A DNA stretch of 39,241 nucleotides. Source: a virus. Below the pieces are notes generated by a model. The model had not been told where the DNA came from. It saw nothing but the letters and a program-made list of their open reading frames with translations, and searched no databases. Positions 11,888 through 34,227 of the stretch are shown one piece after another (the first letter of the stretch is position 1; each line of letters opens with the position of its first letter). Location of the stretch: the IMG/VR virus record IMGVR_UViG_3300031998_000320. The stretch is one strand, 5' to 3'. The position numbers and the translations under genes are program-made.

Positions 11888-12805
11888 CTATCTTACTATT
11901 GAATTTTTATCACAATATACTATATTTGGTCTAAATGTTTCTCCATAGATTTTATATCTACCATTTACTTCTCCCTCAACAGTTACTTTTCTATCTGCTT
12001 GACAACTAGATGGATAACGATTACCATTTACATCATATAAAGCACTACCTTTTTTAATTATTGCAGGGAATGGATAACCACTACCTTTTTTAGTTACATT
12101 TGATTTATCTGTATATACTATACTTGGTTTAAATGAACTACAATATACTTTATACTTACCACTAACTTTGTCAGTTCCTTCACCTTGTACAGTACAATCT
12201 CTATTTGCTTTGCAATCACTTGGATATTTATAACCTTCTTCATTATATAATTTTGCACCTTGTTTTATGATACCTTCAAATGGATAATCTGTTGGCTGTG
12301 GATCATCTTCTGGTTTAGGATTTGCTGGATTTACTATACAACCTAAATAAGGATAATTTGAATTTGTTCCCCATCTTCCATTATTATTATCTCTAGTATA
12401 ATTAGCAAAATCAAAATGATTATAACCTGATTCACTTGTTAAAACTGTGTTGCTATCTATTACTTTTTCTACTACAGCAACGTGTCCTGCTAATGAACCT
12501 TTACCTTCCCATACCATGATACCACCATTTGTTGGTTCTTGTCTTACTTCAAGTCCTAATTCTTTAGCTTTATTATAAAATTTTTCAGCATTACAACAAA
12601 GTTGTGGGTATTTCATACCTTCATATCCTGTTTCTATTGAATAGATTTCGTTAAATCTACCACAAGCCCATCCTACACAGTTACATAATACATTTAATCC
12701 ATCTACAGTAGGTACTCCTGTTATACACCAAGAATAACCACCATTATCACCATTGTTATAAAATTTATTACCTTTATTAGGCAATGTTTTCTGTATCTTG
12801 TACAT
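11888..12805 (-). CDS. Endolysin: CHAP/papain-like catalytic domain plus two SH3-like cell-wall-binding repeats
   Basis: Candidate nucleophile in NCVGWACGRF and histidine in GHVAVVEKV. Two tandem repeats of about 60 aa follow (YPFEGIIKQGAKLY...KPSIVYTDKS and YPFPAIIKKGSALY...RPNIVYCDKN). Start taken at MYKIQ (ATG 12803..12805, GAAGGAGGAG upstream). Confidence 0.8.
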   Translation of the reverse strand: MYKIQKTLPNKGNKFYNNGDNGGYSWCITGVPTVDGLNVLCNCVGWACGRFNEIYSIETGYEGMKYPQLCCNAEKFYNKAKELGLEVRQEPTNGGIMVWEGKGSLAGHVAVVEKVIDSNTVLTSESGYNHFDFANYTRDNNNGRWGTNSNYPYLGCIVNPANPKPEDDPQPTDYPFEGIIKQGAKLYNEEGYKYPSDCKANRDCTVQGEGTDKVSGKYKVYCSSFKPSIVYTDKSNVTKKGSGYPFPAIIKKGSALYDVNGNRYPSSCQADRKVTVEGEVNGRYKIYGETFRPNIVYCDKNSIVR

Positions 12806-12887
12806 CAATATCTCCTCCTTCAACTAATACTTCGTTTACATCAAATTCATTAAAAGTTGTTTGTATTTCTTCCATAATTTCATCTCC

Positions 12888-13016
12888 TTATCTTTTTAAT
12901 ACTTTTTGTTTAAAATTAACATTATCTTTCACTTGTGGAAATCTTTTTGTTATTTCAATACACAACTTGTTATACTTTAATATTAACAGCTCTATATTAT
13001 TATCAAGTTCTGACAT
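12888..13016 (-). CDS. Small ORF between holin and endolysin (42 aa, below track cutoff)
   Basis: Hand translation gives MSELDNNIELLILKYNKLCIEITKRFPQVKDNVNFKQKVLKR. A second 32-aa ORF (12777..12875) with a good SD follows it. Confidence 0.3.
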   Translation of the reverse strand: MSELDNNIELLILKYNKLCIEITKRFPQVKDNVNFKQKVLKR

Positions 13017-13065
13017 ATCATGTAATATCTCTGTTGTAGGTTTTTTACTTAAATCTTCTTCTATA

Positions 13066-13287
13066 TTAGTTACCTTTTTCTATAGTTTTATTGTAATTCT
13101 TTGTTGATATTCCTAAAAGAACACCTAACAATGTATCAAATGCCATTATAGTACCTGCTATTTGTGTTCCATAAGGAATGTTCCATATTTCAAATACTGC
13201 CACTATAAAGGTTGCTATTGCAGGTAAATAATACATAGCTACTTTTTTCCAAAAATCGTAAGTTTCATTTTTAAGTGTAAAATTCAC
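13066..13287 (-). CDS. Holin (Dp-1-type family)
   Basis: 73 aa. WKKVAMYYLPAIATFIVAVFEIWNIPYGTQIAGTIMAFDTLLGVLLGIS matches the LPA......IW.(I/L)PY...I.GT......LG.LLG.S pattern, and it sits just upstream of the endolysin. Confidence 0.7.
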   Translation of the reverse strand: MNFTLKNETYDFWKKVAMYYLPAIATFIVAVFEIWNIPYGTQIAGTIMAFDTLLGVLLGISTKNYNKTIEKGN

Positions 13288-17083: not shown

Positions 17084-17466
17084 TATGACCTCCTACTTAC
17101 AGCAATAAATGAACAACTAAACCCTTCATTTTTTCTATCATTGCCTATTATATATTTATTTACTATTTCATAATCACCTGTATATGTTGTCATTGTTGTT
17201 TGTGCTTGTTTAGTAGGGTCATAATAGCTTAATGTTTGTCTAGCACTATCTATTATTGGTGTTATTATTTCTAACTCACTTTTAGTAAGTTTTCTAAATT
17301 GTAATGTTAATTTAACATATATTCCTATAAGTGTGCCTGTTTGGTCTCCAGCAAGATTTCTTCCACTATCACTACTCCATAATTTATTGTAACCATATTT
17401 TGCATCTACTAGATATTGTCCCATTGATATTCCATTTATTACAATACTATCTTTATCTATAAACAT
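17083..17466 (-). CDS. Putative distal tail protein (short, 127 aa)
   Basis: Called only from synteny: it lies between the tape measure gene and the Tal-like gene, with start/stop overlaps. Confidence 0.4.
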   Translation of the reverse strand: MFIDKDSIVINGISMGQYLVDAKYGYNKLWSSDSGRNLAGDQTGTLIGIYVKLTLQFRKLTKSELEIITPIIDSARQTLSYYDPTKQAQTTMTTYTGDYEIVNKYIIGNDRKNEGFSCSFIAVSRRS

Positions 17467-17470
17467 ATTA

Positions 17471-19066: not shown

Positions 19067-19080
19067 AAAATCACTCCTTT

Positions 19081-19662: not shown

Positions 19663-20162
19663 TATTCTATCACTTCAATATCTTCGCTTTTCTTAACTGC
19701 TTGGCTATATTTTTCTTTTACTTTATCAGTAATATTTTTCATATTAACATCTAAATGTGGTGCTATTTGTTTTTCAATTATTTCATCTATTTCTTGTAAT
19801 GTAGTCCATGTGAACTTTCTACCATTTAATAACTTCTCAACACCTCTTGCACCTAAAAACATATTATATACTTCTATTTCCTTAATAAAAAAATCATTTA
19901 ATGCTTTGATTTTATCTTCTTCATTCTTGCTTAATAGTTTCTTTCCTTTAACATCTTGTCTTTTATCAATTATTAACATTTGATTTCTCAAATTTTCTTT
20001 ATTCTTTTTATCCTTTTCAATCATTTCTTGATATCTTAAAGGAATTTCAATGTCATCCAATTGAAACTCTAAATATTCTCCTGTATCTTTTCCATCACTT
20101 GTTTGTATTCCTAATCTAAATACACTATCTTTATTTAATTTTATAATATTATTGTCTGTCAT
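19662..20162 (-). CDS. Tail assembly chaperone (gpG-position protein)
   Basis: Synteny between the major tail protein and the Gp15-like gene. TAATG overlap with the next gene. Confidence 0.5.
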   Translation of the reverse strand: MTDNNIIKLNKDSVFRLGIQTSDGKDTGEYLEFQLDDIEIPLRYQEMIEKDKKNKENLRNQMLIIDKRQDVKGKKLLSKNEEDKIKALNDFFIKEIEVYNMFLGARGVEKLLNGRKFTWTTLQEIDEIIEKQIAPHLDVNMKNITDKVKEKYSQAVKKSEDIEVIE

Positions 20163-20187
20163 AATATTATCTCCTCTCTTTCTTAAT

Positions 20188-20221
20188 TAAAAATAAGAGC
20201 TAGGGCTATTCCTACCCTAAC
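20188..20221 (-). terminator. Weak hairpin plus U-rich tract after the major tail gene (possible partial terminator)
   Basis: 7-bp stem GUUAGGG/CCCUAGC (20215..20221 with 20199..20205, one G-U pair) followed by UCUUAUUUUU. Confidence 0.4.
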
Positions 20222-20236
20222 CCTTAATAGGTTTTA

Positions 20237-23939: not shown

Positions 23940-24031
23940 AACATTTTCTCCTTCTTTTATAGACTTAGTATAGTCTTATTCCACTTATTTGTGTCGTGTG
24001 CAACTTAAAGTTCTCACGAACTCTTAATATA

Positions 24032-24060
24032 ATTATAATATACGTGTAAAGGATTGTCAA
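24032..24060 (-). promoter_or_regulatory. Consensus sigma-A promoter for the scaffold/capsid genes
   Basis: Minus strand: TTGACA (24055..24060), exactly 17 bp, TATAAT (24032..24037). A leader of about 90 nt follows, with hairpins AGUUC-GUGA-GAACU and AGACU-AUACUA-AGUCU. Confidence 0.75.
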
Positions 24061-24063
24061 ATA

Positions 24064-24092
24064 CCACAAAAAAAGCAAGACTATTTCTTGCT
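24064..24092 (-). terminator. Intrinsic terminator closing the accessory island
   Basis: 7-bp stem AGCAAGA/UCUUGCU (24086..24092 with 24074..24080), 5-nt loop, then UUUUUUUG on the minus strand. Confidence 0.7.
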
Positions 24093-24419
24093 TGATTTTT
24101 TCTTTTTAGGCTTAATTGCTTTTTCTATTGCCTTACTTAATTTATCTAATTCTTCTTTATCTCCTAATGGTACAACATATTCTACATCATCTGCTCTATG
24201 CCCTATAATAGTTGGCATTTCAGGTTCTACTTCAATTACTTTAACAACTACTTGTTTATCTTTGTTACTACCCATTAAATATTTAGCCATTTCTTCTGTG
24301 CATTCAAAAGTATCTCCTACATATAGTTTCCCTTTTGTGTCAAAGCTTCTTCTTTGAATATTTTTTAATTCATCAAATCTTTCTAATGTAAATTCTTTTA
24401 TAACTTCACATCTTATCAT
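24081..24419 (-). CDS. Hypothetical protein with a lysine-rich tail (112 aa)
   Basis: Track ORF ending KPKKKKSSKK. No motif recognised. Confidence 0.5.
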   Translation of the reverse strand: MIRCEVIKEFTLERFDELKNIQRRSFDTKGKLYVGDTFECTEEMAKYLMGSNKDKQVVVKVIEVEPEMPTIIGHRADDVEYVVPLGDKEELDKLSKAIEKAIKPKKKKSSKK

Positions 24420-24429
24420 ATTATACCTC

Positions 24430-25065
24430 CTAAATATCTATATAATCCATTCTATATGTTTTTAAATTATTATTTAATACCCAGAATGAAAATGCTCTTT
24501 CTACTAAATGACTAATCATTCTTTTGTTTACTACTTTACCAACATCTTGTTCTAAAAACTCTTTTAATATGGGCATTACTATTGGAAATAACCATTCACA
24601 ATATTTATTCATTAATTCTCTTTTACATACAAACATTTCTCTATTGTTGAATCTATCTTTATCCATAAATTCTTTAAATCTAGGTATTGCTTGGCAAAAC
24701 TTTTCATAATACTTTTGGTATATATCAGGATTTTCAAATTCACTTTTTAATTGTTCGTGTATGCTTCTTTGAAATACTACATCATGTGTAATTATCATAT
24801 CATAATCTTTAAGTATTTCTTTGGCATCTTTTAATTTTAAATAGTCATCTTTATACCAAAACATTCTCCTATAATGACATAAACCTACTATATCATCATT
24901 TGTATTTTTCCATATATGATACAAACCAGTTACTTCATTTAAAAATAAATTAAGTACATTTATATTATCCATATCATAATGTTCAAACATATTACCTATG
25001 CCTAATTCTACATAATCTTTAGGTACTGGATTATCATATGGTATGTGTTTCATTATATAAATCAT
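24430..25065 (-). CDS. DUF4422-type putative glycosyltransferase
   Basis: The block HIWKNT.DDIVGLCHYRRMFW is the hallmark of DUF4422 proteins found in polysaccharide gene clusters. SD GGGAGGAG lies upstream. Confidence 0.6.
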   Translation of the reverse strand: MIYIMKHIPYDNPVPKDYVELGIGNMFEHYDMDNINVLNLFLNEVTGLYHIWKNTNDDIVGLCHYRRMFWYKDDYLKLKDAKEILKDYDMIITHDVVFQRSIHEQLKSEFENPDIYQKYYEKFCQAIPRFKEFMDKDRFNNREMFVCKRELMNKYCEWLFPIVMPILKEFLEQDVGKVVNKRMISHLVERAFSFWVLNNNLKTYRMDYIDI

Positions 25066-25068
25066 TTC

Positions 25069-25659
25069 TTACTCCTCCCTATGCATCTTTCTCCAAAAAA
25101 GACTTCCCTCTCTATTTGAATTATAAACATACAATACTCTATCTAAATAAGTTGTTTCCATTTGTTGAACTTCTACTTGAAAATCTACATCTTCTTCTCC
25201 CCACTCTAAATCTTCTCTAAATAAAGGGCATACATCATTTCTATATATTGCTTTCCACATTGCTGGATTTGTTGGCCTACACACTACTGCATTCTCACTT
25301 AATCCTAGCCAATTAAAGTTAATTACTTCTGTTGGTGTTTCATCTATTGCCTTTAATAATACATCTATATAATCCATTGTTACTGTATCATCACAGTCTA
25401 TAAAACCTATATATTGTCCTTTAGCTTTTTTTATGCCTTCATTTCTTGTTAAAGCTGTTCCCATATTTTTTTCATGTTCTATTAATCTAATATGGTTTAA
25501 TGCTAATTCTTTTCTCATATCATGAAATTCTTTTTTGCAATAATCATCAATAAGTATTATTTCAACTTTATCATTGACTTGTACCGATAAACCTTTTAAT
25601 AGCCTTTCAGTTAATTCATAAGTTTCAAAGTAAGGTATAATCAAACTTAATTTTACCAT
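25069..25659 (-). CDS. Family-2 (GT-A fold) glycosyltransferase, short form
   Basis: LSLIIPYFETYELTERLLKGL......VEIILIDD opening and the DxD motif IDCDDTV. Confidence 0.75.
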   Translation of the reverse strand: MVKLSLIIPYFETYELTERLLKGLSVQVNDKVEIILIDDYCKKEFHDMRKELALNHIRLIEHEKNMGTALTRNEGIKKAKGQYIGFIDCDDTVTMDYIDVLLKAIDETPTEVINFNWLGLSENAVVCRPTNPAMWKAIYRNDVCPLFREDLEWGEEDVDFQVEVQQMETTYLDRVLYVYNSNREGSLFWRKMHREE

Positions 25660-26684
25660 TGACGATCTCCTCCATTATTCATTTCTTGTTTTGTTTTTCT
25701 AACACGTTCATCCAAATACCTATCAATTACTGGGTCTTTTCCTTTAACACTTAATGCTAATTGCAATGTATCTGCATAATGTCTTATAGTAGAAGTCCCC
25801 CATATTACTTTTTCACGAATAGTTGTTACTGATTTTGTGTTTTGTTGATTCCATACATATACAGGTTCTTGTAACAATTTAAAATCATTCATATAAATAC
25901 ATATCTTACAATGCTGGTTTTTATCTTCTTTTAATGTACCCTCATTATATAGGCATTCTTGCCTTATAGCAAGGTTTTTCTTTATTACCTTACCAACACC
26001 ACTCCAACCTCTTATTGCCTCGTATTTGTCTTTATATTGTGGTATAAAGCAAGTCGTAAGTTTATCGTTTTTGTATTGTGCTAATCCACAAAACAACACA
26101 TCAGGTTGTGTCTGTAATTTATTGTTTATTTTTTCTAGTACTTCATTATCGTAAAGCCAATCATCACTATCTACACAGAATATATAATCAACATCATCAC
26201 TTAAATGTAAATAGCCTTCGTTTCTAGAACCACCATTTAATCGTTTTTGTTGTAACTCTTTTATTCTTATCACAATATCTGGAAAGTATTTAGTTGCTAC
26301 TTTTCTTGCTATTTCAACACTATTATCTGTACTCATATCATCTACAAATATTATTTCAAAGTTCTTGTATGTTTGAGTACATATACTTTCTAAACATTTT
26401 TCTATTGTATGTTCGTAATTATAGTTTGGTATTATAATTCCTATTTTGTAATCTACTTTTTCTGGCAACTTATTCCAATCTTTATCAGTTATCTTGCATT
26501 TTTTTATACAATCAATATCATAATCAGTTAAGTTTAAATCTACAAACTTGCAATATTCATAATGTAAACAATGAAGTCCTGTTTTTAATAAATCTTTATA
26601 ATTTTCATTATCAAATAAATAAATATATTTATTGTTATCTTTTTTTACAGCACTTATACTATTTTTATCGACTGCAATTGTCAT
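25653..26684 (-). CDS. Family-2 (GT-A fold) glycosyltransferase with an N-terminal extension of about 75 aa
   Basis: IGIIIPNYNYEHTIEKCLESICTQTYKNFEIIFVDDMSTDNSVEIA and the DxD motif VDSDDW. Start taken at MTIAVDK (ATG 26682..26684, AGGTGG upstream); the track start is a GTG. Confidence 0.8.
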   Translation of the reverse strand: MTIAVDKNSISAVKKDNNKYIYLFDNENYKDLLKTGLHCLHYEYCKFVDLNLTDYDIDCIKKCKITDKDWNKLPEKVDYKIGIIIPNYNYEHTIEKCLESICTQTYKNFEIIFVDDMSTDNSVEIARKVATKYFPDIVIRIKELQQKRLNGGSRNEGYLHLSDDVDYIFCVDSDDWLYDNEVLEKINNKLQTQPDVLFCGLAQYKNDKLTTCFIPQYKDKYEAIRGWSGVGKVIKKNLAIRQECLYNEGTLKEDKNQHCKICIYMNDFKLLQEPVYVWNQQNTKSVTTIREKVIWGTSTIRHYADTLQLALSVKGKDPVIDRYLDERVRKTKQEMNNGGDRQW

Positions 26685-26701
26685 AAGAACCACCTACATT
26701 A

Positions 26702-26730
26702 ATTATAACATAAAAATAAAAAGGTGTAAA
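26702..26730 (-). promoter_or_regulatory. Extended -10 promoter for the glycosyltransferase operon
   Basis: Minus strand: TTTACA (26725..26730), 17 bp, TGTTATAAT (26702..26710). The -35 lies inside the preceding terminator hairpin. Confidence 0.6.
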
Positions 26731-26738
26731 ATACACCC
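26710..26738 (-). terminator. Intrinsic terminator after the IDRID-type nuclease gene
   Basis: 7-bp stem GGGUGUA/UACACCU (26722..26738, one G-U pair), 3-nt loop, then UUUUAUUUUU. Confidence 0.55.
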
Positions 26739-26739
26739 T

Positions 26740-27300
26740 TTAATTTAATTTCAATGCTTTTTCTATGGTTTTGCCATCTTTTATTTTTTTCCATGCTGTT
26801 TGATAATTTATATTATATATTTTACACCATTCACTTAATAATTTAGTTTCATTGTTTATTGTAAAAAGTAATTTACCACCACTTTTTATAACTGGTTTAT
26901 TTAATGCTTCATTAATAGACAATCCTGCTTTTAATCTATCACTTAATGTTACTATGTTTATATTATATTCTCTAGACCATTGTGATAAAGTTTTTGTTTC
27001 ACCATTATAAGTTATTTTTCTATTATTTCTTCTATTGTTATCTTGTACTTCTTTTGTTACCCATCTACAATTAGATGGTTCATAATTACCATTTACATCT
27101 ATTCTATCTAATGTTAAACCTTTTTTGTAACCATTATTTATAGCCCAATCATAAAAACTATCAGGATTGTTTATCCATTCTTCGCATATTTTTATACCTC
27201 TCCCACCATATATTTCATATCCATGAGTAGCAGGATAATTACATCTACAATACATACTATGTCTTATAGTAATTAATCTTTTTTTATCTTCTTTGTTCAT
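26740..27300 (-). CDS. Free-standing HNH-like homing-endonuclease-type protein (paralogue of 6864..7496)
   Basis: YGGRGIKICEEW...LTLDRIDVNGNYEPSNCRWVTKEVQ, then two repeats of I(T/N)YNGETK.LS.W...YNI. Start taken at MNKEDKK (ATG 27298..27300, GGGAGGT upstream); the track start is a GTG. Confidence 0.6.
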   Translation of the reverse strand: MNKEDKKRLITIRHSMYCRCNYPATHGYEIYGGRGIKICEEWINNPDSFYDWAINNGYKKGLTLDRIDVNGNYEPSNCRWVTKEVQDNNRRNNRKITYNGETKTLSQWSREYNINIVTLSDRLKAGLSINEALNKPVIKSGGKLLFTINNETKLLSEWCKIYNINYQTAWKKIKDGKTIEKALKLN

Positions 27301-27314
27301 AATAAAAATACCTC

Positions 27315-27369
27315 CCACAACAAAGTATTAGAGGAGCAGTTGTGGTACTCCTCTATAAACATTATATCA
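27315..27369 (-). promoter_or_regulatory. Promoter plus structured leader (copy Y) of the nuclease gene
   Basis: TGaTATAAT at 27361..27369. Two interleaved helices: AGAGGAG/CUCCUCU (27348..27354 with 27330..27336) and CCACAAC/GUUGUGG (27339..27345 with 27315..27321). The second abuts the SD. Confidence 0.6.
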
Positions 27370-27373
27370 TATT

Positions 27374-27733
27374 TTATGATATTTTCCAAATATATTCAAT
27401 TTTTTTATCAGTGCAATCCCACGTGTCTATAACGTAGCCATTGATACACGCTGTTATATGATTATTAGTAGTTATTAAATATTTTCCAACAGGATGATTT
27501 TCAGCAAACTCTCCTATGTATATCTCATTGTAAGGTATTCTTTTAAACTTTTTATCTAAAAAATTCCTTACAAAAATAGCACTATCCATCATATAACCTT
27601 GTTCCATTGCACTTTTACATAATTCTTTATATGCTTCTTTCCATGTTATATCCATTACTATTGAATATGCCCTAGGAAAGCAGTCATCAATAAAATTATT
27701 ATGACTATTAGCATTATAAAAATAATATCTCAT
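27374..27733 (-). CDS. Possible papain/transglutaminase-like thiol enzyme (119 aa)
   Basis: Ordered candidate triad: Cys in IDDCFPRAYS, His in NNHITACINGY, Asp in IDTWD. Inferred from motif order only. Confidence 0.35.
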   Translation of the reverse strand: MRYYFYNANSHNNFIDDCFPRAYSIVMDITWKEAYKELCKSAMEQGYMMDSAIFVRNFLDKKFKRIPYNEIYIGEFAENHPVGKYLITTNNHITACINGYVIDTWDCTDKKIEYIWKIS

Positions 27734-27734
27734 A

Positions 27735-28193
27735 CTATCTCATACTATTTTGTAATGCTTCCATTAATTGTTGTTTTTGTTGTGGTGATTCTGCTTCTTG
27801 TTTTAATACCATAATGAAATCTTCAAGTGCTTTTACCATGTAATGAAATGATTTATCTGTTTCTTCACCAGCACCATATCTTTCACGACTATCCATATAA
27901 CGTCCATATTCTCCAGCCATTCTGTCCATTTCTTCTTCACCACGGTATTTCATATCATACCCTCTACGACCATAGTTATCTCTTCCATATTCTCCATAGT
28001 TGTCACGTCCATAACTATCATATCCTGGTCTTCTTGCACCATAATTGCCATAGTTCATATCATTCTCTCCTTCCTTTGCTATATGATTTATTTTTGCTAA
28101 TTTGTATAGATGATCTAAATTATTGGTTGTTATACCTTCATCTAATATCTTTTCTATACTTTCTTTAGTCTTTTCTTCTAACTTTTTGTGCAT
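27735..28193 (-). CDS. Tyr/Gly/Arg/Asp-repeat protein (152 aa), function unknown
   Basis: Central tract MNYGNYGARRPGYDSYGRDNYGEYGRDNYGRRGYDMKYRG is flanked by helical N- and C-terminal segments. Confidence 0.55.
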   Translation of the reverse strand: MHKKLEEKTKESIEKILDEGITTNNLDHLYKLAKINHIAKEGENDMNYGNYGARRPGYDSYGRDNYGEYGRDNYGRRGYDMKYRGEEEMDRMAGEYGRYMDSRERYGAGEETDKSFHYMVKALEDFIMVLKQEAESPQQKQQLMEALQNSMR

Positions 28194-28375
28194 TATTTTT
28201 CCTCCTTTCTTAAAAGAGTTATTATTTCTTCATTTTGTTTAATTATTTTTTCTAAATAATTGCTATCTTGTCTTTGTAATTCTTGCATTAAATCTCTATT
28301 ATTGTAATCTTGTAATAGTAAAATAACACTATATAATTGCAAGATTAAAGATGTCATATCTAAATTATTTCTCAT
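28193..28375 (-). CDS. Hypothetical protein (60 aa)
   Basis: Track ORF with single-nucleotide start/stop overlaps on both sides (28193 and 28375). Confidence 0.45.
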   Translation of the reverse strand: MRNNLDMTSLILQLYSVILLLQDYNNRDLMQELQRQDSNYLEKIIKQNEEIITLLRKEEK

Positions 28376-28836
28376 TAAATTCTACTTATACTAAATGTGG
28401 CATTAGTTATAATTGCTTGTGTTGTTGATATTGGTGTTGTAGGATCAGTTGGTGTTGGTACACTTGGAACACTTTGAACTGATATATTAGTAGTTCCACG
28501 TGGGCATACTCTTAATTTCTTATCAAAAGAAACTGTTTCATAATCGTCAGCTGCTGCAATAGTAACTGCTCTTACTGTATCAGGTATTAATACACCATCT
28601 TGGAATAAACCGATTGCTACAACTCCTGCTGTTGCTGTACTTACGGAAGCACTAAATTCTACATCATAATAACCTGTATAACCATTTCCAAATATTTTAA
28701 AGTTAGGATTACCATTTGAATAGTCTAGCCATCCACAGCAAGAAGCATATCTAGTTCTAACAGTTGTTTCATCAAAAGTTACTGGACTTGCGTTGCTTGG
28801 TAATGCTAATGGTTCATTTATAATTGTTTCTATCAT
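28375..28836 (-). CDS. Beta-rich protein, possibly a C1q/TNF-like jelly roll (BclA-C-terminal/BxpB-like)
   Basis: No TM segment, alternating hydrophobic strand patterns (YYDVEFSASVSTATAGVVAIGLFQDGVLIPDT...ITNATFSISRI) and a P/T-rich loop. The resemblance is by eye only. Confidence 0.35.
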   Translation of the reverse strand: MIETIINEPLALPSNASPVTFDETTVRTRYASCCGWLDYSNGNPNFKIFGNGYTGYYDVEFSASVSTATAGVVAIGLFQDGVLIPDTVRAVTIAAADDYETVSFDKKLRVCPRGTTNISVQSVPSVPTPTDPTTPISTTQAIITNATFSISRI

Positions 28837-28859
28837 TTTATCTTTCTCCTTTCAAATTT

Positions 28860-28928
28860 TGCACAATATATTGTAAAAACAGTGCATTTTATACTAAATT
28901 ATTACAATATTTTCACTTTTATTGTGCA
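28860..28928 (-). promoter_or_regulatory. Palindrome-rich control region upstream of 28375..28836
   Basis: Perfect 12-nt palindrome ACAATATATTGT (28863..28874). Distal inverted repeat TGCACAATA (28860..28868) / TATTGTGCA (28920..28928). A further ACAATAT copy occurs at about 28904..28910. Confidence 0.4.
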
Positions 28929-28934
28929 TTTCTA

Positions 28935-28969
28935 TAAAAAATAGAGAATAGAACTATGCCTATTCTCTA
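28935..28969 (-). terminator. Intrinsic terminator after the Gly/Cys-rich protein gene
   Basis: Perfect 10-bp stem UAGAGAAUAG/CUAUUCUCUA (28960..28969 with 28942..28951), 8-nt loop, then UUUUUU. Confidence 0.75.
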
Positions 28970-29004
28970 GTCCACTCTAGTACGGACAGATGTCCACTCT
29001 AGTA
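28970..29004. repeat. Tandem 13-nt direct repeat in the 3' untranslated region
   Basis: GTCCACTCTAGTA occurs at 28970..28982 and 28992..29004 (22-bp period). The spacer can pair as GGAC-AUCU-GUCC. Confidence 0.6.
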
Positions 29005-29055
29005 TGGAATTAGCAAGTTCTCGTAATCGAGTTAGTTGTATTCAACTCTATGCTA

Positions 29056-29877
29056 TTAAATAAATTGACTTGTTGTACCCATTCCACAACCACAACCACC
29101 ATTGTTGCAAGTGAATATAGGTGTTCTACCATAAACTGGTGTACTAGGTACTGGACAGTTTGCTAGTCTATTGTATAATTGGTCTACTTCATTAGCAAAG
29201 CCTTGTGCTATAAATGAGTTTTGTGCTACTTGACTTGCTTGTAAGTCTTTCATAAGAACTTCTCTTTGTAAATCAACTATCTTATCATTCTTACTGTCTA
29301 ATTCTAATTGACATAATTTATCAAGAACTGATTGTGTATTAGCTGTTTGATTTGCAATAATATCTCTTACACCTTCATTTAATGCTTGTCTATCAGCACA
29401 GTTTTCAGTTGCAACAGTATATTTTAAGTCAGCTATACCTAGTTTGTTTTCACAGCAACAGTTTAAGAATGAAGTATTAAGGTTATAAAAACCATTATTT
29501 ACTGCTGATGTAATATCTGACGTACTATTACATAACTGATTAGATAAACTATTTATTGCATCTCTATTACCTTCTAATTGGTTAGATAAGTGTAATGTGT
29601 CAAATCCATTGTTAGTGTTTTGCATAATTTCTTTTTGACCATTTGAAAGCCAAGCATATCCATCATCAAATCCACGTCCACCAAAGAATCCACCGTTGTT
29701 TCCGTTATTTCCCCAACCTCCAAATAAAGCAAGGATAACGATTACCCAAATCCAATCTGCACCGTAACCACCAAAGCCACCATTACCAAATCCACCCATT
29801 ACTGGATAAACTGGATAAGAATTATTAGTAGCTAAATCTACAGTAGGTACTATTCCTGAATTTCCGTTCATTTGCAT
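29056..29877 (-). CDS. Gly/Asn-rich single-pass membrane protein with a Cys-rich helical ectodomain (273 aa)
   Basis: GGFGNGGFGGYGADWIWVIVILALFGGWGNNGNNGGFFGGRG (Gly tracts flanking one hydrophobic helix, YjcZ-like). An N/Q-rich helical region follows, with 10 Cys including NCCCE and a C-terminal CNNGGCGCG. Confidence 0.6.
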   Translation of the reverse strand: MQMNGNSGIVPTVDLATNNSYPVYPVMGGFGNGGFGGYGADWIWVIVILALFGGWGNNGNNGGFFGGRGFDDGYAWLSNGQKEIMQNTNNGFDTLHLSNQLEGNRDAINSLSNQLCNSTSDITSAVNNGFYNLNTSFLNCCCENKLGIADLKYTVATENCADRQALNEGVRDIIANQTANTQSVLDKLCQLELDSKNDKIVDLQREVLMKDLQASQVAQNSFIAQGFANEVDQLYNRLANCPVPSTPVYGRTPIFTCNNGGCGCGMGTTSQFI

Positions 29878-29906
29878 TCTCCTTTCTTAATATTTTATAT
29901 CAAATG

Positions 29907-30152
29907 CTATTTAGCATTGATACCATTAATTTGGCTCATCATGTTATCCCATTGTTGTCTTTGTTCTGGACTAAATCCTCCTACAACTTCATTCAAAAAT
30001 TCATTAGGATTTCTATTTTCCTTTCTTGCTTGTTGATATTTTTTGTATGCTTGAGGATTTCTCATCTTCAACTGTTGTTCCATCTGTTTCATCATCCCTT
30101 GTGGTATTGATTGCATTTTCTGGTTGAATAACATTTGTATTAGGTTGTTCAT
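29907..30152 (-). CDS. Gln/Met-rich small protein (81 aa), overlapping the upstream ORF
   Basis: Track ORF in the +1 frame relative to 30013..30531, overlapping it by 140 nt. AAAGGA lies 10 nt upstream of the ATG. Confidence 0.45.
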   Translation of the reverse strand: MNNLIQMLFNQKMQSIPQGMMKQMEQQLKMRNPQAYKKYQQARKENRNPNEFLNEVVGGFSPEQRQQWDNMMSQINGINAK

Positions 30153-30531
30153 TTGTTATCATTCCTTTCTTTAATTCATCAATTTCTGCTTTTAACATTT
30201 CTATTTGCATATCTTTTGCATCTTTTGGTACTATTTCCGTTAATTCATAAGTTCTTATATTACCTCTTGTATCTTTAACCCATACAACACTCATATCTTT
30301 GCTAAAATATGGTGTATCACCTATTACTACATTTCTTTGTACTTCTTCTAATGAATTAGCATATCTTATAGCATCATGATTTGTAGGTGCTAATTGAAAG
30401 TTCTGTGTTATAGGTTGTTGTACTGGTTGTTGTTGATACTGTGCTTTTGCTTTTTCTAGTTCATTTATTTGTGCATTTATTCTGTCTAAACTTGCTTGTG
30501 GACTATAAATATTAAATGGACTATTATACAT
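30013..30531 (-). CDS. Hypothetical protein with a Gln-rich N-terminal region (172 aa)
   Basis: Track ORF with SD AAGGAG upstream. It contains QYQQQPVQQPITQNFQ, then a globular segment AIRYANSLEEVQRNVVIGDTPYFSKDMSVVWVKDTRGNIRTYELTEI. Confidence 0.55.
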   Translation of the reverse strand: MYNSPFNIYSPQASLDRINAQINELEKAKAQYQQQPVQQPITQNFQLAPTNHDAIRYANSLEEVQRNVVIGDTPYFSKDMSVVWVKDTRGNIRTYELTEIVPKDAKDMQIEMLKAEIDELKKGMITNEQPNTNVIQPENAINTTRDDETDGTTVEDEKSSSIQKISTSKKGK

Positions 30532-30642
30532 AAATTCATCTCCTTACAATAGAAAAAGAGGACACAGTATTATTACTTCTCAAATCGTGTTTTAAACAAC
30601 TCTAACAAGTTCTGTTTCCTCCTTTTCAATACCATTATCACA

Positions 30643-30674
30643 TAAAAAAAGAACCCAATTTTGTTGAGTTCTTC
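30643..30674 (-). terminator. Intrinsic terminator after the small HTH gene
   Basis: Stem AAGAAC/GUUCUU (30668..30673 with 30649..30654) plus one inner pair, followed by UUUUUUU on the minus strand. Confidence 0.55.
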
Positions 30675-30682
30675 TAAAAAAA

Positions 30683-30883
30683 TTATATAATTTTTCTAAT
30701 CTTTTTCTTTAATTTTTTAATCATTACATCTAGTGTTGATTCACTAACACCTAATTCCATAGCCATTTTAACACGACTATATCCTTTTATTTTGTATTCT
30801 AACAACTTTTGATATTCTTTATCTAGCATACATTGTTCAACAATATATTCATAATCTATTTTTGTAAAGTCAAAAAAATTCAT
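30683..30883 (-). CDS. Small sigma-70-region-4 / LuxR-like HTH protein (66 aa)
   Basis: EYKIKGYSRVKMAMELGVSESTLDVMIKKLKKKI resembles a stand-alone sigma region 4 type HTH. Confidence 0.5.
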   Translation of the reverse strand: MNFFDFTKIDYEYIVEQCMLDKEYQKLLEYKIKGYSRVKMAMELGVSESTLDVMIKKLKKKIRKII

Positions 30884-30954
30884 TATTTCCTTTTTGATCT
30901 ACGATATTTTCTTTTAACAGTCGTTTTGATATATCTTACTCTTTGTTTTGCCAT
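30883..30954 (-). CDS. Possible 23-aa highly basic peptide
   Basis: Hand translation gives MAKQRVRYIKTTVKRKYRRSKRK. GAGGTG lies 8 nt upstream, and the ORF has TAATG overlaps with both neighbours (30954 and 30883). Confidence 0.35.
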   Translation of the reverse strand: MAKQRVRYIKTTVKRKYRRSKRK

Positions 30955-31250
30955 TAGTTATTCACCTCATTACTCTTACCATTAATAAAATTGTTATTTC
31001 CATTATCACCTGAATCTTGAGTAACATCATAACTTTCAGTAGTAACTTCCTCATAGCCTATATCATTAAGAATATATACTAAATATACTATAGTAGCAAA
31101 CCACATTAAAAGCATAGTTAGAATAATAATAAATAGTCTTTTATTTGTTTTTTTATAATCTTTTAGCATTTCCATTGCTAAACTTTGTTCTCTTACTGCT
31201 TGAACTTCTTTTTTCATTTCTAAAACTTCCTCCTTCAAGCTCATAATCAA
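30954..31250 (-). CDS. Single-pass membrane protein (98 aa)
   Basis: Coiled-coil N-terminus, the TM helix RLFIIILTMLLMWFATIVYLVYIL, and a polar D/N/G-rich tail. Confidence 0.55.
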   Translation of the reverse strand: MIMSLKEEVLEMKKEVQAVREQSLAMEMLKDYKKTNKRLFIIILTMLLMWFATIVYLVYILNDIGYEEVTTESYDVTQDSGDNGNNNFINGKSNEVNN

Positions 31251-31513
31251 CTATCCTTTCGATGATACTCCCTTATATGATGTGCCATTGCTTCTTCTAT
31301 TTGAACTTTAATCTCTTTATCATAATCATCTAATTTGTCTAATATTCTTTGCACTTTTTTGTCTAGTTCATTTAATCTATAGTCAATTAATCCTATATTT
31401 TCTTCTTTTGCGTCTTTGACAGCTTTATCTTTTCTATTTACTACAAAATTAGCAACTGTCATTACTGCTGACAATATACTAATAGACAAAGCAACTGTTA
31501 GTTCCATAGACAT
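31247..31513 (-). CDS. N-terminally anchored membrane protein with a coiled coil (88 aa)
   Basis: TM helix LTVALSISILSAVMTVANFVV, then a K/D/E-rich helix. 4-nt overlap with the next gene. Confidence 0.55.
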   Translation of the reverse strand: MSMELTVALSISILSAVMTVANFVVNRKDKAVKDAKEENIGLIDYRLNELDKKVQRILDKLDDYDKEIKVQIEEAMAHHIREYHRKDS

Positions 31514-31541
31514 ACCTCCTATTTTTACTCTTACTAATTAA

Positions 31542-31570
31542 ATTATAACATAAAAAAAGAATAATACCAA
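31542..31570 (-). promoter_or_regulatory. Extended -10 promoter for the membrane-protein/HTH operon
   Basis: Minus strand: TTGGTA (31565..31570), 17 bp, TGTTATAAT (31542..31550). It is embedded in the preceding terminator. Confidence 0.55.
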
Positions 31571-31582
31571 ATAGCATTATTC
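31551..31582 (-). terminator. Intrinsic terminator after the 77-aa zinc-ribbon gene
   Basis: 7-bp stem GAAUAAU/AUUAUUC (31576..31582 with 31559..31565), 10-nt loop, then UUUUUUU. Confidence 0.55.
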
Positions 31583-31810
31583 CCATATAATATCACTAAC
31601 ACCAAGATTATCAAGCATATCATTATAGCAATTTTCACATAAACAACATAACTTCTTTTGTTGAAATTTATTGTTATTTCTTACATTAATTGTATAATCT
31701 GCATTTGCTTTACCACACTTTATACAATTACTACTTTTTCTGTCTGCTAATGATTTTAAATATGCTTGTAATTCTGCGTCATTCATACTCCTTATTTTGT
31801 TTAAATCCAC
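31577..31810 (-). CDS. Small zinc-ribbon protein (77 aa)
   Basis: CIKCGK....CCLCENC. GTG start with AGGAGG 8 nt upstream. Confidence 0.5.
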   Translation of the reverse strand: MDLNKIRSMNDAELQAYLKSLADRKSSNCIKCGKANADYTINVRNNNKFQQKKLCCLCENCYNDMLDNLGVSDIIWE

Positions 31811-31830
31811 ATTATCTACCTCCTAATATA

Positions 31831-31859
31831 ATAATACCACTTTTTACATATTTTATCAA
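31831..31859 (-). promoter_or_regulatory. Sigma-A promoter immediately after the RNA-unit terminator
   Basis: Minus strand: TTGATA (31854..31859), 17 bp, TGgTATTAT (-10 at 31831..31836). Confidence 0.6.
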
Positions 31860-31860
31860 T

Positions 31861-31885
31861 AAAAAAAGAACGATATTATCGTTCT
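31861..31885 (-). terminator. Strong intrinsic terminator ending the ORF-free unit
   Basis: Perfect palindrome AGAACGATA-T-TATCGTTCT (31867..31885), followed on the minus strand by a run of U (31861..31866). Confidence 0.8.
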
Positions 31886-32362
31886 TGCGTTTTAAGTGCT
31901 ATCTTATAAGCACTGTACTAATGATATAAAGGTTATAACTTAGCCATTTGTTGTGGAGTACAAGAATTACATAAGGAAGTTGGCTCTAACTATTAACACT
32001 TGTCATCCCTTTAACCACATCATCTTTTATATATCATCAGTACACTACCTATAAAAGATAAACCAAGCAACCCCTCCGCTATTGCTCGGACTTGATATAA
32101 CACAAATATATCTCCAAGTGCCTATTATAAGCACCATTGAATAGATATAGACAGTGGTGCAAGGATACCCTTGATAATCGTTTCCTTTAGTCTTAAATCG
32201 CTTCCCACACTAGAAGTTGTGTACTTAACTTCTTTACTTAAGACATTATTCACTAATCTGCAGTTCGTGAAATTATCAATGTACCGATTATATCTACTCA
32301 ATGCTACCTATAAAGGTAACACCAAAAATTTATAGCTTCCAATCCTCATAGAAGTAATTGGA
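31861..32362 (-). ncRNA. Candidate large structured non-coding RNA (about 0.5 kb), family unassigned
   Basis: No ORF of 60 aa or more in any frame, and composition is visibly less A+T-rich than the flanks. It has its own promoter and terminator and several clean hand-paired helices (see findings). Confidence 0.55.
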
Positions 32363-32369
32363 CAATTTA

Positions 32370-32398
32370 ATTATATCACTTTAATTTACTTTTGGCAA
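32370..32398 (-). promoter_or_regulatory. Extended -10 promoter of the ORF-free unit
   Basis: Minus strand: TTGCCA (32393..32398), 17 bp, TGaTATAAT (32370..32378). The 16-mer TGATATAATTAAATTG (32363..32378) is identical to 7604..7619. Confidence 0.55.
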
Positions 32399-32920
32399 CT
32401 TATCATCTGCATATTTCCATTTGTAGCCATAAGCATTAGATATTCTTCCTTTTGCACAAGCAATTATATTACTTCTATTAAAATTAAATTCTTTTTCAAT
32501 TTCAGTTATTGAATTATATTTCTTAATAAAATTATTGTTTTTATCGTATTGTTTAATTGATTTTATTATACCTAATCTTGCTTTTTGTGTTCTAGTTCCA
32601 TAGTTTATATTATATGTATGCTCACACCATTCTAAATTATCAACGCAGTTATTACTAGGATTTTCATCTTTATGGTTAATTTCATTATAATTATTAGGGT
32701 TAGGTAAAAATGTTATTGCCACTAATCTGTGTACTCTAAAATGATGTCTTCTACCATCTTTTGTAAATAAACACACCCTTTTATAATTATGATTACTTTC
32801 TTGTTTTAATATTTCTTCTTTATTATGATGTCTATATTTCATACTTTTTACTCTACCCAAATTAGACACCATGTATCTTCCTTCAAAATCAGGAATATCT
32901 TTCCACACTTCTTCTATCAT
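32381..32920 (-). CDS. HNH homing endonuclease (NUMOD4 / HNH_3 / C-terminal DNA-binding repeat)
   Basis: WKDIPDFEGRYMVSNLGRVKS, then HRLVAITFLPNPNNYNEINHKDENPSNNCVDNLEW, then a C-terminal NIIACAKGRISNAYGYKWKY. Start taken at MIEEVWKD (ATG 32918..32920, GGGAGGTG upstream). Confidence 0.85.
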   Translation of the reverse strand: MIEEVWKDIPDFEGRYMVSNLGRVKSMKYRHHNKEEILKQESNHNYKRVCLFTKDGRRHHFRVHRLVAITFLPNPNNYNEINHKDENPSNNCVDNLEWCEHTYNINYGTRTQKARLGIIKSIKQYDKNNNFIKKYNSITEIEKEFNFNRSNIIACAKGRISNAYGYKWKYADDKLPKVN

Positions 32921-32931
32921 ATATAACACCT

Positions 32932-32988
32932 CCCGAATAAGTGTTAGAGGAAGCAATTCGGGTACTTCCTCTATATATAATCATAACA
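32932..32988 (-). promoter_or_regulatory. Promoter plus structured leader (copy X) of the HNH gene
   Basis: TGTTATGAT at 32980..32988. Two interleaved helices: AGAGGAAG/CUUCCUCU (32965..32972 with 32946..32953) and CCCGAAU/AUUCGGG (32956..32962 with 32932..32938). The second abuts the SD. Confidence 0.6.
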
Positions 32989-32991
32989 TAT

Positions 32992-34227
32992 TTACTTCAT
33001 TTTAGCAATATTTACACGACGATAGCCACTAACTTTAGCACGTTCGATTTTACTTTTTAAACCACTTGCTTTCAATATATCCCTATATTTGCTTGTTAAT
33101 TGAGTTATTCTACTTTGCATTTCTCCAACTAATTCAGTGTTATTGCTAGAATAAGCAAGTATTTGAGTGTCTTTAGATTTTCTTAATTCTAATTCTACTT
33201 TACGAAGTAATTGTTCACCATCATATAAGCTATAATGTTTGCCTTCAAATTCAAAACCTTTATTATTGCTATCAATTATTTCTTTTAATTGCTTATCGCT
33301 ATATTCAGGTTCACTAACACCTAAAACAATGCTAAATATGTAGTGGTAACAGTTAAGCTCACTAATTGGACGATAACCATTTTTGTTATCGTGATCTAAC
33401 GTATAAGTATTGCCTTTATAATCTTTTGCTTCAAGTCCACTATTTAATCTATCGTATTCTGCTAGTGAAAATTGTCTACCTTGTACTTTTTCATGGTCTA
33501 TTGCTGGATTACTATGTACACTTATTTCATACCCATCACTATCAAATTCAGCACCTAATATTTTTTGGTTTTCATTATGTAATTCTCTTAATCTACCTTT
33601 TAAGTGCATTCTTATAGCACTATCTAATCTTATAGAACGTCCACTTTCATATTGAATAGTCTTTAAACCACTACCACCAATGTCTTTCATAATTCTACTC
33701 ATAGCACTATCGAATGTTTCTTTACCTTGCCCAACATTTAATAATGCCTCATCTAATACACGATTATAAGTTTCTCTTAACCCCATAAATTGAACTCGTC
33801 CATTTATATCACGAATAGTATAGCCTAATACATTTGCACGAGTAAAATTATACATTTCGTTCTTAACTATATTTGCAAGTGCCTCTGTTTGACGTTTTAA
33901 TGCCTCATTTTGCTCGTATTCTACAAAAGGTATATTTCTATACTGGTAGAACTTTTCATAGAATAATTGGTCTTTTTTAGCGTAATTAGAGAATATATCA
34001 TCAATATCTTTTATATTCAAATCTGTATATTTAGCAATTTCTCTTATAATATCTTCATAATTGCCACCATATTTCAAGATATTCACAAGTTGTTGTGCTT
34101 GACTTGGTGTTAATTCTCTTATTTTTTTAATAGAAGAACCCATTTTCATTAGAAAATAGGTGTTTGCTTCTTCTATTCTATTCAAAAGTCTTTCAACTAA
34201 CAACTCAATTTGTTCTTCACTTATCAT
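32992..34227 (-). CDS. Minor head protein (head morphogenesis, minor-capsid-2 / MuF-like position)
   Basis: 411 aa, encoded just downstream of the portal gene (separated only by the 162-aa HExxH ORF). The N-terminus EEQIELLVERLLNRIEEANTYFLMKMG is typical of this family. Confidence 0.65.
   Translation of the reverse strand: MISEEQIELLVERLLNRIEEANTYFLMKMGSSIKKIRELTPSQAQQLVNILKYGGNYEDIIREIAKYTDLNIKDIDDIFSNYAKKDQLFYEKFYQYRNIPFVEYEQNEALKRQTEALANIVKNEMYNFTRANVLGYTIRDINGRVQFMGLRETYNRVLDEALLNVGQGKETFDSAMSRIMKDIGGSGLKTIQYESGRSIRLDSAIRMHLKGRLRELHNENQKILGAEFDSDGYEISVHSNPAIDHEKVQGRQFSLAEYDRLNSGLEAKDYKGNTYTLDHDNKNGYRPISELNCYHYIFSIVLGVSEPEYSDKQLKEIIDSNNKGFEFEGKHYSLYDGEQLLRKVELELRKSKDTQILAYSSNNTELVGEMQSRITQLTSKYRDILKASGLKSKIERAKVSGYRRVNIAKMK

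Follow-up and report, generated by a model that had tools for sequence, protein, structure and literature searches.

A mobile seven-gene phage cassette with a glycine-flanked, cysteine-rich coiled-coil protein at its core, a candidate for a membrane-anchored assembly

In the i-spanin Rz, in p16.7 of phi29 and in protein H of phiX174, an N-terminal anchor is followed by a long helical region. The exosporium of Bacillus contains BclA, in which collagen-like repeats and an exosporium-targeting N-terminus accompany the C-terminal domain, and BxpB/ExsFA, a TNF-like jelly-roll of about 150 residues with a flexible N-terminal extension. The Ena subunits of endospore appendages likewise consist of a jelly-roll, which is preceded by a cysteine-containing N-terminal connector. 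Thiol hydrolases of clan CA, finally, share the residues Cys, His and Asp in this order and in a common secondary-structure setting. Here we analyze a stretch of 39,241 nucleotides of the virus record IMGVR_UViG_3300031998_000320, referred to below as the window, in which seven co-oriented open reading frames (ORFs) on the minus strand, here named A172, B81, C273, D153, E60, F152 and G119 in the direction of transcription, form a cassette. C273 recalls the first of these groups in its layout, D153 the second in its fold and G119 the third in the order of its putative active-site residues. A preliminary description of this region, made from the letters of the DNA without database searches, had listed six of the ORFs and had read them as ingredients of a spore coat or exosporium. 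These six are indeed present on the minus strand at the coordinates given there, together with the motifs quoted for them; the seventh, the 60-codon E60 gene, which is conserved in relatives, had been missed.

The seven genes form one functional module and travel together. The order A-B-C-D-E-F-G is kept in the related loci L003, L004, L006-L016, L028 and L034-L038. In the Butyrivibrio virus Ceridwen and in L018-L027 the order is permuted to G-A-B-C-D, with an F-like repeat protein next, and in the Clostridium perfringens phage XP41-N3 genes of the A, B, C, D and E types are consecutive. The identity between the window and its relatives is mosaic. In L003, L004, L006, L012 and L015 it amounts to 91-95% for D153, the most conserved member of the cassette, to 52-80% for C273 and to 42-65% for A172, while that of G119 falls into two classes of about 35-40% or 86-87%. 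The view of the preliminary description that the genes make up one module is borne out by the many phages in which they recur as a block. The places where the cassette was found, namely phage genomes, a prophage and phage-sized contigs, contradict the statement that its products are not typical of phage proteins.

Furthermore, the cassette has moved between phages whose head genes are unrelated, and its position in their genomes varies. A near-identical version, with 78-80% identity for C273 and 91% for D153, was found in three genomic settings. In L003, a phage with a P22-type portal, it lies 5' of a glycosyltransferase gene and the large terminase gene, two genes upstream of the latter. In the window as well as in L004 and L006, all with SPP1-type portals, it lies between the minor head gene and the scaffold gene. 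In L034-L038 it is located between tail genes on the one side and an M23 peptidase gene and SSB/RecT genes on the other, with an integrase gene nearby in L038. A related cassette is present in the cultured Vescimonas fastidiosa MM35 at the end of an integrated prophage, directly after holin and amidase genes and separated from the lactate genes of the host by a few small ORFs; all its genes are annotated as 'hypothetical protein' by PGAP. The end of a prophage is a usual place for accessory 'moron' genes. In XP41-N3 and in the Bacteroides phage C3_41T2LP the cassette is found among early or recombination genes, whereas in Ceridwen, in L034-L038 and in the Vescimonas prophage it follows tail or lysis genes.

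None of the seven ORFs gave a significant match in Pfam, NCBIfam or PADLOC; a known defence system was rejected as an assignment, since no anti-phage defence model of PADLOC matched. Three of the proteins belong to PHROG families, namely C273 to phrog_16490 (E 5.6e-37), D153 to phrog_20016 (E 2e-5) and G119 to phrog_3754 (E 1.8e-21, all by hidden Markov model search), and all three families are listed with 'unknown function'. The proteins are not orphans as had been proposed, as C273 has at least 8,000 homologues in a metagenome protein collection (all scored candidates with E <= 0.001), many of them on contigs of 36-50 kb, D153 has 582 homologues, and the G119 profile collected 1,476 cluster representatives, which come without genomic context. 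Sequence and profile searches against PDB chains yielded noise for C273, D153, G119, A172 and F152. No match to GenBank phages was obtained by megablast with half of the window or by tblastn with D153, A172 and F152. The extreme compositions pointed out in the preliminary description are real. Among the 68 minus-strand ORFs of at least 60 amino acids in the window, the highest local densities belong to three cassette proteins: C273 has the densest Gly stretch (17 of 45 residues), F152 the densest Tyr+Gly+Arg stretch (25 of 40) and A172 the densest Gln+Asn stretch (12 of 30).

The core protein C273 (29056..29877, minus strand) starts with a short acidic N-terminus, which is followed by a Gly tract, a single hydrophobic segment and a second Gly tract. 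A long Asn/Gln-rich helical region with an invariant CCCE motif comes next, and the protein ends in a Pro-rich C-terminus with a CGCG cluster. Its 10 cysteines are located at positions 116, 140-142, 160, 189, 241, 257, 262 and 264. The hydrophobic segment reaches a Kyte-Doolittle maximum of 1.61 over 19 residues; the flank on its N-terminal side is acidic, and a conserved Arg follows it. This architecture, the CCCE motif and the C-terminal Cys cluster are conserved in the homologues from Butyrivibrio, C. perfringens and E. coli phages. In crAss-like and Bacteroides phages the motif reads QCCCS or QCCCD, and the single hydrophobic segment flanked by Gly is conserved from the phages of Firmicutes to those of E. 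coli and the crAss-like phages. No relatives of C273 were found in Pfam, NCBIfam or PDB. The C273 profile gave matches to coiled coils and weak matches to influenza HA2 (E 0.2-4) among the PDB chains, which we count as noise.

C273 thus shares with Rz, p16.7 and protein H the succession of an N-terminal anchor and a long helical region; its cysteines recall Rz and its Asn/Gln-rich coiled coil recalls phiX174 protein H. However, there is no detectable homology to any of the three, and the Gly tracts around the anchor, the invariant CCCE motif and the C-terminal CGCG cluster are features of none of them. The hosts of the phages that carry the C273 family include some that have an outer membrane and some that lack one. 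A likeness to the YjcZ-type sporulation peptides, which had been suggested from the Gly tracts, did not hold up: at E <= 0.1 no YjcZ family in NCBIfam or Pfam matches C273, and whereas these peptides are tiny, Gly-rich and consist of a single transmembrane segment, C273 has 273 residues with a large additional domain.

D153 (28375..28836, minus strand) consists of a disordered N-terminus and a predicted beta-sandwich of the C1q/TNF/BclA-C-terminal type. The AlphaFold2 model, built with 26 homologues, has a mean predicted local distance difference test (pLDDT) value of 68, and its eight-stranded core reaches about 80-87. Residues 1-33 are disordered and carry a CC motif, and a Thr/Pro-rich loop is found at residues ~122-141 ('PSVPTPTDPTTPISTT'). 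Among D-type proteins, cysteines are retained both in the N-terminal extension and in the core, and a Thr/Pro-rich loop is likewise present. In a Foldseek search against PDB the model matched the C-terminal domain of BclA (3twi, 3tyj, 1wck and 2z5w) with E 1.4e-4 to 6e-4 and template modelling (TM) scores of 0.39-0.51, the match at E 1.4e-4 reaching 0.46-0.51, and BxpB (8d02) with a TM score of 0.51-0.53, a root-mean-square deviation of 3.3 over 125 columns, E 2.6e-3 and 15% identity. Further matches were the F-BclA tip domain of endospore appendages, ligands of the TNF family and the C1q head; CBM35 and CBM6 domains are among the weaker ones. The C1q/TNF/BclA-like head that the preliminary description had recognised by eye is therefore supported at the level of the fold. 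Against BFVD the best matches are stand-alone gut-phage proteins of 130-150 amino acids, two of them named 'BclA protein', followed by distal domains of collagen-repeat, C1q-domain and tail-fibre proteins (E 3e-7 to 1e-4, TM scores up to 0.65 when normalised to target length).

D153 and BxpB/ExsFA are alike in their length of about 150 residues, in the TNF-like jelly-roll and in the flexible or disordered N-terminal extension. At the sequence level no link to BclA or BxpB was found in Pfam, NCBIfam or the PDB sequence and profile searches. Unlike BclA, D153 has no Gly-X-Y repeats, no match to Pfam Collagen and no BclA-type N-terminal targeting motif, and in contrast to BclA and BxpB of the Bacillus exosporium it is carried by phages of mostly non-sporulating hosts. 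The knobs of phage collagen-repeat and tail-fibre proteins have a similar fold, but D153 lacks a stalk or fibre domain, and its conservation of 91-95% is well above the usual level of receptor-binding domains. Its small viral fold mates, the 'BclA protein' entries of BFVD, are themselves uncharacterised. The disordered N-terminus with its CC motif and the conserved core Cys were also set beside the N-terminal connector of Ena; D153 has no Pfam match to the Ena family (DUF3992) at E <= 0.1, and no Ena structure is among the top 50 Foldseek matches. In phages with glycosyltransferases, the Thr/Pro loop could be a site of O-glycosylation.

G119 (27374..27733, minus strand) is a small alpha/beta protein with the ordered residues Cys18, His92 and Asp103. 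Over 70 diverse homologues His92 and Asp103 are invariant, and Asn7, Asn9, Asp17, Cys18, Arg21 and Gly99 are conserved to at least 90%. In the AlphaFold2 model (pLDDT 87) Cys18 lies near the start of helix 1, and His92 and Asp103 lie on adjacent strands. This arrangement shares with papain-like and NlpC/P60-like hydrolases an Asp-Cys pair at the start of helix 1, a His at the start of a strand and an Asp 11 residues further on; G119 is a putative thiol hydrolase or peptidase. With 119 residues it is smaller than the known members of this group, examples of which are Tae4 and the Josephin, CHAP and C39 peptidases. Foldseek gave nothing significant (best E 0.15; Tae4, Josephin-2 and PaToxP at E 1.1-3.2), sequence and profile searches of Pfam, NCBIfam and PDB gave no match, and Pfam scans of distant and of longer multi-domain relatives revealed no informative domain. 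Of the assignment proposed in the preliminary description the ordered Cys/His/Asp set has therefore been retained, whereas the placement among papain or transglutaminase-like enzymes has not, as neither structure nor sequence gave a significant match. In Ceridwen-type loci G119 stands at the start of the cassette. Relatives also occur alone among the early genes of large Bacillus phages, of Pakpunavirus (Pseudomonas) and of Lak megaphages, and a few depositors label them 'peptidase'.

The remaining four proteins are small and partly of low complexity. A172 (30013..30531, minus strand) has a Pro/Gln-rich N-terminus, a small beta-rich middle part and a C-terminal coiled coil. It has no match in Pfam, NCBIfam or PDB; homologues are encoded 5' of the C gene in L003-L016, and the counterparts in Ceridwen and XP41-N3 belong to phrog_21718. 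B81 (29907..30152, minus strand) is a mini-protein with 17% Gln and 11% Met, and its Ceridwen counterpart belongs to phrog_22984. The two genes overlap by 140 nt (30013-30152) in different frames, with B81 in the +1 frame, so that the last ~46 residues of A172 are involved. In the closer relatives the B81 frame is better kept than the A172 frame (37 of 47 versus 28 of 46 identities in L003), and the A-like and B-like genes of Ceridwen-type loci have at most a few bases in common; the tail of A172 therefore looks like an overprinted extension. E60 (28193..28375, minus strand) is a helical protein of 60 amino acids with a hydrophobic N-terminal and a charged C-terminal half, conserved 3' of the D gene in L002-L016. 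F152 (27735..28193, minus strand) has helical ends around a Tyr/Gly/Arg/Asp repeat region that is predicted to be disordered; a stretch of 73 residues contains 13 Tyr, 13 Gly and 11 Arg. It gave no match in PHROG, Pfam, GenBank-phage tblastn or PDB, and its homologues in L003-L028 are 30-84% identical. In Ceridwen-type loci ('RGRGRNARRDSMGRY') and in the Bacteroides phage C3_41T2LP ('YGREYDRDYDRDYDRE...RRGRRRRR') the gene of an analogous repeat protein comes after the D-like gene.

The C273 architecture is carried by the Butyrivibrio phage Ceridwen, by six C. perfringens phages, by the Bacteroides phage C3_41T2LP and many crAss-like phages, by E. coli phages of the genera Nonanavirus and Sashavirus and by two viruses assigned to Methanomassiliicoccales. 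Metagenome-assembled genome bins with close relatives of the cassette were assigned to Clostridia, Coprobacillaceae, Erysipelotrichaceae, Lachnospiraceae and 'Tenericutes', and come from the guts of ruminants and other animals. In the E. coli phages the C273 homologue is encoded between the large terminase and portal genes; the block of these phages is absent from 5,426 E. coli genomes. In the crAss-like phage cr116_1 the cassette lies between the small terminase gene and scaffold-like and capsid genes. The Bacteroides and crAss-like versions contain neighbours analogous to those of the window, namely a Cys-containing beta-rich protein, a protein of beta structure plus coiled coil and a short charged repeat protein. 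The slot of G119 is taken in C3_41T2LP by a small HExxH protein annotated as a PolyVal metallopeptidase and in cr116_1 by unannotated HExxH proteins. These are of the metallo class, in contrast to the Cys/His/Asp set of G119, with which the PolyVal-type enzymes have no sequence similarity; nevertheless, their presence in this slot suggests that the cassette needs a small peptidase. No description of the cassette or its families was found in the searchable literature. Its annotations hold nothing beyond 'hypothetical protein' and depositor labels such as 'lateral tail fiber chaperone', 'spike protein/glycoprotein' and 'outer capsid protein/viral fiber', which are unverified, probably driven by the coiled coils, and were not adopted.

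We favour, with a probability of roughly 40%, the reading that the cassette is a self-contained, horizontally mobile accessory unit which builds a membrane-anchored assembly in the infected or lysogenic cell. C273 would be anchored in the cytoplasmic membrane via its glycine-flanked hydrophobic segment, and its Asn/Gln-rich coiled coil and cysteine-cluster domain would be located on the cytoplasmic side. There it could recruit the companions without signal peptide: A172 and E60 with their coiled coils, B81 and F152 with their low complexity, and D153, which is probably trimeric as its structural relatives are. Metal sites or disulfides formed by the conserved cysteines may hold this assembly together, and G119 would be a thiol peptidase or hydrolase processing one of the components or a host target. 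As for its purpose, our guess is a modified membrane interface, serving e.g. the exclusion of other phages or the control of envelope events. A role in the cell is favoured because the same cassette occurs in phages with unrelated head architectures, because it is often located at module junctions and, in one prophage examined, near the prophage end, and because D153 is far more conserved than usual virion surface proteins. Of the seven proteins, only C273 has a membrane segment, and the six others have neither a hydrophobic leader nor another export signal, which suggests an assembly at the cytoplasmic side of the membrane. The cassette also looks autonomous, as it has terminators of its own and, recurrently, a helix-turn-helix (HTH) gene upstream.

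Several points weigh against this assignment. No homology to a characterised protein points to a given activity, and the interaction among the products is deduced from their co-occurrence. The proposed topology of C273 is read from a weak charge asymmetry only; its hydrophobic core is short, comprising about 12-15 residues, and the segment of the E. coli phage homologue is hardly more than a glycine zipper. G119 may have its targets in the host and not in the cassette, since its relatives occur alone in the early regions of other phages, and the weaker matches to CBM35 and CBM6 indicate that D153 may, according to its model, be a carbohydrate-binding domain. Finally, head and packaging genes surround the cassette in the window, in the crAss-like phages and in Nonanavirus, and a role in the virion would fit this position equally well.

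The main rival is therefore a virion-associated module, the products of which are packaged in or on the particle, and we consider it unlikely, though a serious contender. C273 would then be a membrane-inserting ejection or 'pilot' protein with a layout that recalls podovirus ejection proteins or phiX174 protein H, D153 a trimeric knob on the head or fibre, possibly O-glycosylated on its Thr/Pro loop by neighbouring glycosyltransferases, and G119 a maturation peptidase. Head or packaging genes adjoin the cassette in four settings (the window with L004 and L006, cr116_1, Nonanavirus and L003), and among the viral fold matches nearest to D153 are distal domains of tail-fibre and collagen-repeat proteins. 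Hydrophobic or transmembrane segments in proteins without signal peptides, as seen here, are typical of ejection proteins, and depositors have given crAss-like C273 homologues the spike and capsid-fibre labels mentioned above. These labels, however, are unverified, and a cassette that is 78-91% identical in phages with unrelated portal types is hard to square with proteins fitted to a capsid or portal. The cassettes among early or recombination genes in XP41-N3 and C3_41T2LP and those after tail or lysis genes in Ceridwen, L034-L038 and Vescimonas, the possession of own terminators and a regulator, and the 91-95% identity of D153 across phages likewise argue against packaging; receptor-binding or decoration proteins usually diverge fast.

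Less probable still is an accessory of lysis or of the envelope, in which C273 would serve as a cysteine-bearing, membrane-anchored coiled coil like an i-spanin or lysis regulator and would, together with the peptidase, breach the outer layer or time its breakdown. Domains of the endolysin type are the commonest among the neighbours of the cassette in the 22 loci surveyed (PG_binding_1 in 6 ORFs, CHAP in 3, and also ELLD and Hydrolase_2). The M23 peptidase gene of L034-L038 follows within three ORFs downstream, the Vescimonas cassette comes after holin and amidase genes and that of Ceridwen after an endolysin gene, and two small membrane proteins encoded upstream in the window, one of them weakly holin-like, recur in L012 and L014. 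On the other hand, a position after the lysis genes is also a plain module junction where accessory genes gather, and the hosts are Gram-positive, Gram-negative and archaeal and therefore have no common outer layer. No cassette ORF matches a holin or spanin family in PHROG or Pfam. In the window, the holin-like ORF (13066..13287, 73 amino acids with two transmembrane segments) and the CHAP endolysin gene (11888..12823, 311 amino acids with two C-terminal repeats and no PHROG match) are 14 kb away, and the cassette was rejected as the lysis cassette on account of these genes at 11888..13287.

The reading of the preliminary description, that parts of a spore coat or exosporium and glycosyltransferases jointly build or modify a cross-linked and glycosylated surface of the spore or host, appears very improbable. 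The compositional features are real, BclA and BxpB are among the best solved matches of D153, three glycosyltransferase-like genes are adjacent in the window, and a related cassette is present in C. perfringens phages. However, Butyrivibrio, Bacteroides, E. coli and the methanogens do not form spores, and neither, to our knowledge, does Vescimonas. With most identified carriers infecting such hosts, the host range largely refutes this reading, and carriers in Butyrivibrio, Bacteroides and E. coli, among the crAss-like phages and in methanogen-assigned viruses rule out a spore-specific role. Moreover, no ORF matches a sporulation, coat, exosporium, YjcZ or transglutaminase family in Pfam or NCBIfam, D153 lacks the collagen-like repeats and the targeting motif of BclA, six of the seven proteins have no export signal, and the linkage to glycosyltransferases is found in a minority of loci. 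Hardly credible, finally, is a chance run of unrelated small low-complexity phage genes without a functional unit, because the low complexity of several members, the missing tblastn matches of A172, D153 and F152 and the mosaic identity (e.g. 34-39% for G119 in some relatives, 86-87% in others) stand against an order and co-occurrence kept over dozens of loci in several lineages of phages, some of which are very distant and have analogous components.

The genes of the window are all encoded on the minus strand, and its G+C content is ~27%. In the direction of transcription it looks like a small siphophage: the large terminase, an SPP1-type portal and a minor head protein come first, and an HNH endonuclease gene and a few small ORFs follow before the cassette. 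On the 3' side of the cassette are a second HNH endonuclease gene, two genes of the glycosyltransferase family 2 (GT2) and a DUF4422 gene, and further on the scaffold, the major capsid protein, a tape measure protein of 531 amino acids, a tail fibre, the holin-like ORF, the CHAP endolysin and replication and recombination genes. A perfect sigma-70 consensus (TTGACA, 17 nt, TATAAT) is present just upstream of the scaffold gene (24032-24093, minus strand), directly preceded by a hairpin (24073-24093) that scores as a terminator on both strands.

The cassette itself is divided into two units, A172-B81-C273 and D153-E60-F152-G119, each bounded by terminators. On the minus strand, hairpins resembling terminators are located at 30647..30675, between the HTH gene and the first unit (a 12-pair stem with a T run), at 28942..28969, at the end of the first unit, and at 27329..27355, at the end of the second. 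In the region 24000-33000 nine terminator-like sites were observed versus 1.7 expected. Two units delimited by promoters and terminators had been proposed previously; the terminators are supported by these numbers, whereas matches to sigma-70-type promoters are no more frequent than expected by chance (68 found versus 64) and were rejected as unit borders. Between the stop codon of C273 and the terminator of the first unit, ACTAGAGTGGAC is present as a direct repeat of two exact copies with a 10-nt spacer (28970..29003, minus strand). These are its only matches in the window, and two matches also occurred in 46 of 100 shuffles, so that such a pair is not rare by chance. As there are merely two copies, both within one spacer, a shared operator was rejected.

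Just upstream of the cassette, a transcription unit of its own contains the HTH gene (30683..30883, minus strand), which encodes 66 amino acids of the sigma-70 region 4/GerE-like type. The Pfam matches to GerE and Sigma70_r4_2 are weak and below the curated cut-offs, and PHROG gave sigma-factor and HTH matches. A homologue precedes the cassette in L003, L007, L008, L015, L018, L020 and L021, and a GerE-domain gene occupies the same place in L034. The HTH protein is likely a dedicated regulator of the cassette. AgrB-like genes (quorum-sensing peptide processing) are found 5' of the cassette, beside or near an HTH gene, in L004 (7996-9216), L034 (6265-6843) and L038 (5826-6389), and none is present in the window. 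There, three small ORFs are located 5' of the HTH gene (30954-31810), encoding a Cys4 zinc-ribbon-like protein of 77 amino acids, a coiled coil of 88 amino acids with an N-terminal transmembrane segment and weak holin and 8xMP matches, and a coiled-coil protein of 98 amino acids with a transmembrane segment. In L012 and L014 homologues of the 88-residue protein are encoded upstream of the cassette, and in L012 there is also one of the 98-residue protein. The three ORFs may be part of an extended module.

Downstream of the cassette are the HNH gene (26740..27318), the GT2 genes (25653..26693 and 25069..25659) and the DUF4422 gene (24430..25065), all on the minus strand. The same GT and DUF4422 genes follow the cassette in L004 and L006 only, and one GT2 gene is present in L003. 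In a Pfam scan of 125 flanking ORFs from the 22 loci, Glycos_transf_2 was found in 5 ORFs (three loci) next to PG_binding_1 in 6 and RecT, CHAP and AgrB in 3 each. A GT2 gene beside the cassette is thus seen in 3 of 22 surveyed loci, and none was seen in the further contexts looked at. The glycosyltransferase neighbourhood emphasised in the preliminary description therefore exists in the window with three GT-like genes in a row, but it is a local circumstance and not a conserved feature of the cassette.

Four HNH homing-endonuclease genes are present in the 39-kb genome (26740-27318, 32381-32956, 6864-7517 and 9224-9757), two of which flank the cassette region. In L011, L020, L021, L025 and L036 HNH genes are found at varying points inside or beside the cassette, and in cr116_1 (L031, 8391-10507) the deposited annotation shows a major capsid gene split by an HNH endonuclease gene. 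The 68-kb contig L004 contains a second, diverged block of the composition D(partial)-E-F-G-GT-GT (17239-20229) about 6 kb downstream of the first, which reflects either a tandem duplication or the chimeric assembly of two strains.

Overall, we rate the cassette as lying outside the known kinds of phage system, judging from absence of evidence and from its unassigned function. A bolder interpretation, which we regard as doubtful, is that of a new and widely shared phage machine, that is a membrane assembly cross-linked by cysteines or metal and composed of a glycine-zipper coiled-coil protein, a C1q-like trimer, low-complexity scaffolds and a dedicated peptidase. It would be used at the cytoplasmic membrane for entry, for the exclusion of competitors or for organising the infection in phages of Bacillota, Bacteroidota, Proteobacteria and possibly archaea, and it would have no characterised counterpart. 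The results also advise caution in that spore-coat biology should not be read from composition alone. The C273 family is very large and is present in some of the most abundant gut phages, including the crAss-like phages, yet it has no assigned function. The portable multi-gene cassette to which it belongs is a concrete unit to delete or to express, and cultured, tractable carriers are available with the Vescimonas prophage, Bas82/PJ16 (E. coli), XP41-N3 (C. perfringens), Ceridwen and C3_41T2LP. Should the cassette act at the membrane, a new way in which phages of several bacterial phyla enter, exclude competitors or manipulate the host could come to light.

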